Positions 26,405-26,484 of a DNA stretch of 64,000 nucleotides are shown piece by piece. Position 1 is the first letter of the stretch, and each line of letters opens with the position of its first letter. Position numbers and translations under genes: made by a program. The stretch covers positions 1-64,000 of the IMG/VR virus record IMGVR_UViG_3300030333_008604, one strand, 5' to 3'. The DNA comes from a virus. A model generated the notes under the pieces. The model did no database searches. It was given only the letters and a program-made list of their open reading frames with translations, and was not told the origin of the DNA.

Positions 26405-26484
26405 GGGATAGTATCTCCTCGTTCTTATAAAGCGTAGAAAGAGTAACTGGTTACATGTGGGTTCGAGTCCCACCTATCCCACCA
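26405..26484 (+). tRNA. Non-canonical tRNA-like RNA with UAU (Ile) anticodon-like loop and displaced D-loop
   Basis: Acceptor GGGATAG/CTATCCC plus ACCA; T-arm GTGGG-TTCGAGT-CCCAC; CGTT-CTTATAA-AGCG hairpin; no D-arm 5' of it. Confidence 0.75.

Follow-up and report, generated by a model that had tools for sequence, protein, structure and literature searches.

We consider it probable, from comparative analysis, that the 80 bases at positions 26405-26484 (+) of a marine phage record encode a tRNA-Ile(UAU) that reads AUA and belongs to a large phage family in which two adjacent segments of the tRNA core have been exchanged. The element is made up of a 77-nt design followed by an encoded CCA, and it lies in a virus record of 122,942 bp with an estimated completeness of 68%; the window analyzed here is the first 64 kb (64,000 nucleotides) of that record. 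The layout recurs and is not a chance resemblance: pattern scans found the same 77-nt design at 239 loci, with 169 distinct sequences (distinct 76-mers), and its carriers include phage contigs, 40 Streptomyces phages, a crAss-like Bacteroides phage and 39 metagenome-assembled contigs. Common to many phages, the swapped design is missed by tRNA finders.

Results

Parts and order of the element

The element occupies an intergenic slot between an upstream ORF that ends at 26366 and a downstream ORF that starts at 26500, and its parts are listed in Table 1. The initial annotation of this DNA had described a perfect 7-bp acceptor stem with ACCA, a perfect T arm and a spacing of only 8 bases between the acceptor strand and an anticodon-like hairpin, and all of these were recovered; the acceptor strands pair throughout and are followed by A and CCA, the T arm has a 5-bp stem with the loop TTCGAGT, and the hairpin has the loop CTTATAA, with TAT at 26426-26428. 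The facing of CTC (26415-26417) and GAG (26441-26443) was confirmed as well, and the D-loop-like string with its GG (AACTGGTTA) is present in the sequence. A promoter-like motif that had been placed 5 nt upstream did not hold up, since a scan with the sigma-70 consensus found none there, the nearest + strand site being at 26241-26268. The 20-mer and the 12-mer upstream of the element occur once each in the window, with no repeats.

An acceptor stem, a T arm and an anticodon arm with a 7-base loop are present, and covariation was seen in all three. Absent is a D hairpin between position 9 and the anticodon arm, where the element has 4 bases and the Rfam tRNA model 15. Relative to the textbook order, positions 10-21 (D-stem 5' strand and D loop) are placed after positions 22-43 (D-stem 3' strand and anticodon arm), and the layout that follows U8 A9 is U-X-Y-C (22-25), C (26), the anticodon arm, N-GAAA, G-Y'-X'-U (10-13), A-R-N-N-G-G-U-N-R (14-21), C-A-Y and the T arm. 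The core tertiary letters U8, A14, R15-Y48, G18 G19 and the T-loop UUC are all found in the window element; the tertiary contacts of this core signature are presumably present too, and the GAAA run may pack against the D-stem-like helix.

Table 1. Parts of the element at 26405-26484, and tRNA-like genes among the lower-scoring matches of the family model. A1, alignment of 62 distinct sequences; A2, alignment of 89 distinct rows; R1, family model built on A2.
Feature	Position	Strand	Basis or remark
Acceptor stem, 5' strand (positions 1-7)	26405..26411	+	7/7 pairs with 26474-26480
U8 A9	26412..26413	+	Invariant in A1 and A2; columns fixed in the 5'-half retrieval patterns only
U-CUC, replacing the D-stem 3' strand (positions 22-25)	26414..26417	+	CUC pairs with GAG 26441-26443
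C in place of position 26	26418..26418	+	Invariant in A1 and A2, by construction (fixed in every pattern covering the column)
Anticodon arm: U.U closing layer and 4 pairs, loop CUUAUAA	26419..26435	+	Rfam tRNA model alignment, covariation
Anticodon UAU, then A37 and A38	26426-26428 (anticodon)	+	Sequence
A-GAAA connector, anticodon stem to GAG	26436..26440	+	GAAA in 53/53 distinct elements
GAG-U, replacing the D-stem 5' strand (positions 10-13)	26441..26444	+	Partner of 26415-26417
D-loop-like segment AACUGGUUA (A14 A15 N N G18 G19 U N A21)	26445..26453	+	Pattern kept in the family
CAU connector	26454..26456	+	Last base in the Y48 place, adjoining the T stem
T arm: 5 pairs, loop UUCGAGU	26457..26473	+	Sequence, Rfam model; 4/5 pairs covary in A2
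Acceptor 3' strand (26474-26480), discriminator A (26481), encoded CCA (26482-26484)	26474..26484	+	Sequence
Lower-tier tRNA-like genes, uncalled by ARAGORN	L172:4361-4438(-), L164:2702-2781, L174:2248-2327(-), L168:4872-4949		R1, 25-55 bits
Lower-tier tRNA-like genes, uncalled by ARAGORN	L168:5086-5165, L175:3261-3339, L165:35-113(-), L125:7210-7286		R1, 25-55 bits
Lower-tier tRNA-like genes, uncalled by ARAGORN	L137:4553-4629, L174:3144-3223(-), L168:4368-4457, L175:2165-2253		R1, 25-55 bits

Response of standard tRNA tools

ARAGORN made no tRNA call over the whole 122,942-bp record, where it reported only a tmRNA, and neither relaxed thresholds without introns nor its mitochondrial mode produced a credible tRNA at the element. 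An intron-containing tRNA was rejected, since the calls that ARAGORN made with introns of 19-85 bases were implausible. The Rfam tRNA model (RF00005) gave 31.8 bits and so just passes its gathering cut-off of 29; it aligned the acceptor, anticodon and T arms, deleted the D arm (4 bases against 15) and inserted 18 bases in the variable region. Two relatives of the element scored 30.8 and 31.2 bits and a third was not listed at E<=0.01, whereas ordinary tRNAs in related loci scored 35-69 bits, with 15 of 17 at 48 or above. The expectation in the initial annotation that no standard cloverleaf would score well was borne out in both programs. An Rfam family already described is formally matched, but only once the D arm has been deleted and 18 bases inserted, so that the element does not qualify as a standard cloverleaf. 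The minimum free energy fold of the 80-mer (z = -1.66) was discarded, as its predicted structure disagrees with the covariation.

Census of the family

When phage records were searched with blastn, 41 of them aligned with the middle 64 bases at 81-83% identity, namely the 40 Streptomyces phages and the crAss-like Kehishuvirus 'tikkala'. Among the 30 records listed, 28 have no annotation at the site and two, both EGole, have a tRNA-Leu there. Pattern scans extended the family. A pattern for the 3' half retrieved more than 118 viral contigs, and one for the 5' half retrieved 39 genome_contigs records, all of them metagenome-assembled and none an isolate genome. More than 118 viral contigs were also retrieved with a third pattern, in which three of the GAAA bases were free and the first was restricted to non-A only, and GAAA was found in all 53 distinct elements from the 69 loci obtained in this way. 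The D-loop-like pattern A-R-N-N-G-G-U-N-R was kept in contigs retrieved by the 5' half alone.

Two alignments were used, A1 with 62 distinct sequences over 77 columns and A2 with 89 distinct rows. Because all of the alignments come from pattern-based retrieval, the patterns themselves fix many of their columns, and a column was counted as evidence only if at least one retrieval had left it free; the rows are also mutually related rather than independent. Length is fixed in A1 (62/62, no change over the 77 columns), and the only variation beyond it is of 1-2 bases in the D-loop-like part. The discriminator is A in all rows of A1 and A2, A37 and A73 are invariant, and CCA is encoded in only 18 of 247 family copies.

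When the record was searched with R1, the family model built on A2, the window copy was the only match (94.9 bits, for a sequence that was in the training alignment). Over 100 loci, 103 of the 179 matches scored 73-99 bits and the next best 54.5. Seventeen matches chosen from this lower tier (25.6-54.5 bits) were inspected, and at 15 of them ARAGORN made no call (Table 1). In these layouts the anticodon arm is preceded by no D arm and followed by a GG string, an A-rich run directly adjoins the T stem on its 5' side, and the anticodons are UCU, UCG, ACG and CCU (Arg) or GAU and UAU (Ile). Judged by layout and anticodon, they look like one or more further rewired classes, with several per phage array.

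Some related loci carried other departures. One viral contig, L094, has the element only from the A-GAAA run onward, the 5' part being replaced by unrelated AT-rich sequence; its 3' acceptor strand is identical to that of L092, and a truncated copy, an insertion and a recombination joint are all conceivable. A type-II tRNA-Leu-like gene at L003:2388-2505 has the acceptor stem and T arm of the window element and about 33 extra bases in the anticodon loop, possibly a small intron or insertion, and the ordinary tRNA-Leu(CAA) of L002 shares the same acceptor stem and T arm.

Pairing and covariation of the rearranged core

In the proposed structure, 97.4% of A2 cells were paired, against 64.7% in shuffled alignments and 36-45% after the 3' partners were slid. 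Two-sided changes occur at 7/7 pairs of the acceptor stem across the family, and in A2 all four pairs of the anticodon stem covary (98.3% paired), while the 27-43 layer is U.U in at least 90% of the rows of both A1 and A2. The CUC/GAG helix (columns 11-13 with 37-39) is 100% paired in 89/89 distinct sequences. One of its pairs, the equivalent of G10-C25, is invariant (CG in 89/89 of A2); another is CG in 70, AU in 12 and UA in 7, and the remaining one CG in 46, UA in 27, GC in 9, AU in 4 and UG in 3, which amounts to two-sided changes at two of the three pairs. The reading given in the initial annotation, a rewired tRNA with the anticodon arm ahead of a D-loop-like part and held by CTC/GAG, therefore agrees with the comparative data, since this helix covaries.

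A second line of evidence comes from the places of R15 and Y48 (column 42 with column 53), which are AU in 69, GC in 10 and other combinations in 10 of the A2 rows, so that 10 of the 89 sequences break the pair. In the set where both bases were free, A-T was found in 19, G-C in 10, A-C in 4, G-G in 3 and G-T in none (Fisher p = 1e-6, a value that assumes independent sequences although the rows are related). This covariation between R15 and the base that adjoins the T stem corresponds to the Levitt pair in ordinary tRNAs. The D-loop-like string that had been noticed earlier fits A14-R15-N-N-G18-G19-N-N-R21 and is supported by the same covariation.

Restoring the textbook order

The pieces of 62 sequences were re-joined by index in textbook order, leaving out L094, which is without the 5' part. 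ARAGORN called a tRNA-Ile in 62/62 of the un-swapped sequences (48 UAU, 14 GAU) and in 0/62 in the native order. As for the controls, 0/62 were called with the D-loop segment placed after the connector, 4/62 with the segment reversed and 28/62 with the segment shuffled; because shuffling still yields 28 calls, this test is supportive but lenient. Scored against a profile that was built from 33 ordinary tRNA-Ile genes of phages, taken from these loci, 151 members had a median of 21.5 bits when un-swapped, 9.7 in native order and 13.9-14.6 in the controls, so that the gain of the un-swapped form over controls is only about 7 bits.

Anticodons, neighbors and codon demand

The anticodon of the 169 distinct sequences is always NAU (UAU 113, GAU 39, CAU 17), and the strict pattern gave no match with a non-A at position 35 or a non-U at position 36. 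A search for CAU under the pattern gave 15 CAU forms. The CAU members are found in 15 viral contigs (L163-L177, with two copies in L168), and a metagenome-assembled genome_contigs record, L141, has one CAU and one GAU copy. They are either lysidine-dependent Ile tRNAs or Met tRNAs. The proposal of the initial annotation that the element may keep its elbow and act as an AUA decoder is supported as a reading, given that the anticodons are confined to NAU and that R15-Y48 covaries. Its other suggestions, a nuclease-resistant tRNA or a decoy for anticodon nucleases, are possible alternatives.

Other tRNA or tmRNA genes were detected by ARAGORN in 150 of 159 loci, and the copies lie in register within phage tRNA arrays. 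Among the 25 commonest categories listed, the nearest tRNA is on the same strand in 145/145 copies and is tRNA-Arg(UCU) in 76. This setting bears on the possibility that the element is a tRNA look-alike acting outside translation, either as a decoy or sponge for a host anticodon nuclease, a modifying enzyme or a synthetase, or as a regulator. The strong conservation of the anticodon loop and the acceptor/T domain would be expected of a decoy too, and some phages do carry an ordinary tRNA-Ile with the same anticodon (9-10 copies among the categories listed, with GAU by GAU in 6-7 and UAU by UAU in 3). In tRNA-rich loci, however, it is often seen with no other Ile gene (18 GAU and 17 UAU copies in the categories listed), and elsewhere it complements an ordinary tRNA-Ile of different anticodon (GAU by UAU in 12-13 copies and UAU by GAU in 6, again among the categories listed). 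It often stands beside tRNA-Arg(UCU), the usual companion for rare codons, its three first anticodon bases all fall in one codon box, and we know of no tRNA-Ile-specific nuclease. A role outside translation is thus unlikely in our assessment.

The Kehishuvirus 'tikkala' genome has the GAU form at 95577-95653, in an unannotated gap between tRNA-Trp and tRNA-Met. In its bases 1-100,000 (of 100,841) ARAGORN found no ordinary GAU Ile gene, the swapped copy being the sole GAU one, and reported one UAU gene and a doubtful 90-base AAU call. In L041, a syntenic relative of the window phage, the element occupies the corresponding slot with 5 differences over 77 bases, and both of the stem changes keep the pairing; the flanking proteins are 54-82% identical and PhoH 81%. 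In the window phage, AUA accounts for 613 of 2149 Ile codons (28.5%) in 81 crude ORFs and AGA for 36.5% of Arg codons, a codon demand that is only suggestive. The crude ORF call places 80 of the 81 ORFs on the + strand. Among the 22 sequencing runs listed with this DNA, which are marine metagenomes and of which two may be its source, none is on record as RNA.

Several other features were seen in the surroundings of the element. The phage encodes a one-piece tmRNA at 19388-19739 (+) of the window (123.9 bits, tag ANDNVSFDYALAA), which precedes the tRNA gene by about 6.7 kb, and L041 has a tmRNA at 11699-12047 (-), about 6.5 kb from its tRNA copy. Neighboring proteins include a weak tubulin/FtsZ-like protein at 24090-25127 (+), at 22.1 bits against a Pfam cut-off of 33, a staphylococcal nuclease (SNase) homologue at 26719-27039 (+) and a PIN-PhoH fusion at 29441-30751 (+), none of which is of a tRNA-related family. 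Two short ORFs upstream of the tRNA gene, at 25976-26263 and 26193-26366 (+), overlap by about 70 bases in different frames, and both are matched in L041 with 59% and 82% identity; they are perhaps two genuine genes, or else a single gene with a frameshift.

A proposed 12-base hairpin 3' of the anticodon arm

The bases after the anticodon arm could instead form a long variable arm, a 12-base hairpin that had also been seen in the initial annotation. The element would then be a tRNA-Ile of the same function that lacks a D arm, and its D-loop-like part would make no contact with the T loop. The Rfam tRNA model aligns the element in just this way (4 bases against 15 at the D arm, with the 18-base variable insertion), the hairpin can form 4-5 pairs in the window sequence, and U-A/U-G and A-U/G-U are possible at two of its pairs in most members. 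Its pairing, however, shows no covariation beyond base composition, the four pairs being 82.9% paired in A2 against 82.4% in shuffled alignments. The third pair is unpaired in 35/62 sequences of A1 and fails in 37/84, and the outer G-C fails in 18/18 non-standard rows; the outer G changes in 19 rows, with a matching change of the opposite C in one. This G covaries with column 11 and not with that C (18 rows unpaired), and R15 covaries with the base before the T stem. The hairpin was consequently rejected, as it pairs no better than shuffles and its outer G tracks column 11, and we regard the absence of a D-arm equivalent as quite improbable.

That the element is a decaying pseudogene or an integration-site remnant is scarcely credible and was rejected: tRNA finders do reject it and the relative L094 keeps the 3' part only, but its fixed length, stems that are all intact and covarying in 169 distinct sequences across unrelated phages, and a tight intergenic slot conserved in L041 contradict decay.

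Discussion

With the exchanged segments put back in their places, the element has much in common with canonical bacterial and phage tRNA-Ile (RF00005), among them the less common UAU type, which needs no lysidine to read AUA. They share the 7-bp acceptor stem, A73, the 5-bp T arm with a UUCRA loop, the C-U-NAU-A-N anticodon loop, U8, A14, R15, G18 G19 and Y48, as well as tRNA neighbors on the same strand. The differences are in the middle, where a D hairpin is missing from the stretch between positions 9 and 26, the strands of the D stem flank the anticodon arm with the D-loop-like part after it, and an N-GAAA run and a CAY connector take the place of the ordinary variable loop.

Other unusual tRNAs resemble the element only in part. 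D-armless animal mitochondrial tRNAs, such as mt tRNA-Ser(AGY), also lack a D hairpin on the 5' side of the anticodon arm, and additional pairs extend that arm. These tRNAs lose the D loop and the G18G19/T-loop contact. The element, by contrast, is found in bacteriophages and retains a GG segment resembling the D loop together with a T loop of textbook form, and the conservation of both led us to reject a tRNA of the mitochondrial type. The permuted tRNA genes of Cyanidioschyzon merolae and some archaea likewise have a gene order unlike the textbook one. There the 3' half is encoded ahead of the 5' half, and an ordinary tRNA is recovered by way of a circular intermediate. A permuted gene was rejected for the element, whose ends are in normal order and pair directly; because both ends are normally placed and the swap is internal, circularization cannot undo it, and the mature RNA would therefore itself be rewired.

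Allo-tRNAs are non-canonical natural tRNAs from metagenomes and phages, as is the element, with 8/4 or 9/3 acceptor/T stems (PMC5389517, PMC7609411) and with UAU among their common anticodons (PMC7609411). They differ in keeping the cloverleaf order, in having a long variable arm and in being tRNA-Ser-like. An allo-tRNA was rejected here on account of the 7/5 stems of the element and the lack of support for the supposed variable-arm hairpin. In full-text searches of literature outside subscription journals we found no published description of a tRNA with this segment order, and we found no published name for a segment-swapped phage tRNA(NAU) family. A 2020 review of non-canonical tRNAs makes no mention of permuted, rearranged, swapped or phage tRNAs (PMC7609411).

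In the rewired tRNA that we favor, the textbook order of segments (1-9, 10-21, 22-48, 49-76) would be replaced by 1-9, then the D-stem 3' strand, position 26, anticodon arm and N-GAAA, then the D-stem 5' strand and D loop, and finally CAY, the T arm and the acceptor 3' strand. The same helices would form, with a D-stem-like helix of 3 pairs closing around the anticodon arm and stacking on it, and the GG of the D-loop-like segment would meet the T loop while R15 pairs with the base before the T stem. The L shape would be kept because the same helices, the GG/T-loop contact and the R15-Y48 pair are all still possible. The three new joints link nucleotides that we take to be adjacent in the textbook core, as in the structure of yeast tRNA-Phe. 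As for its origin, the two middle segments may plausibly have been duplicated, with the outer copies then being lost.

The element carries all of the tRNA parts contacted by RNase P, CCA handling, EF-Tu and the ribosome, along with an anticodon loop of the isoleucine box and A73, and its placement is that of a tRNA gene. The RNA would be excised from a + strand read-through transcript by RNase P and 3' trimming, host IleRS would charge it through the anticodon loop and A73, and it would supply AUA decoding without lysidine. For the IleRS of E. coli, however, the identity elements include pairs in the D stem and the anticodon stem as well, and those pairs are not conserved in the family. A U34 that is unmodified or wrongly modified could read AUG too.

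It is possible, though we doubt it, that the swapped core is an adaptation, one in which the acceptor/T domain, the anticodon loop and the elbow stay accepted while a re-threaded D region shields the RNA from those host factors that recognize the D arm. Such an RNA would still be accepted by RNase P, EF-Tu, IleRS and the ribosome, and the factors evaded could be tRNA-cleaving defense nucleases, or wobble modification enzymes that would make UAU read AUG. An adaptation of this kind would explain a design that is near letter-for-letter the same in unrelated phages, and also the rewired designs with Arg anticodons in the same arrays.

The arm order of the cloverleaf is treated as universal outside organelles. 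Should the phage RNA prove to be charged and to decode AUA, it would represent a natural tRNA of different strand connectivity and show that there is more than one way to build the L-shaped core, and it would offer a compact natural scaffold for the design of orthogonal tRNAs. In that case tRNA finders and phage annotations would be systematically missing a class of tRNA genes, and phage tRNA inventories and estimates of codon supply would have to be corrected.
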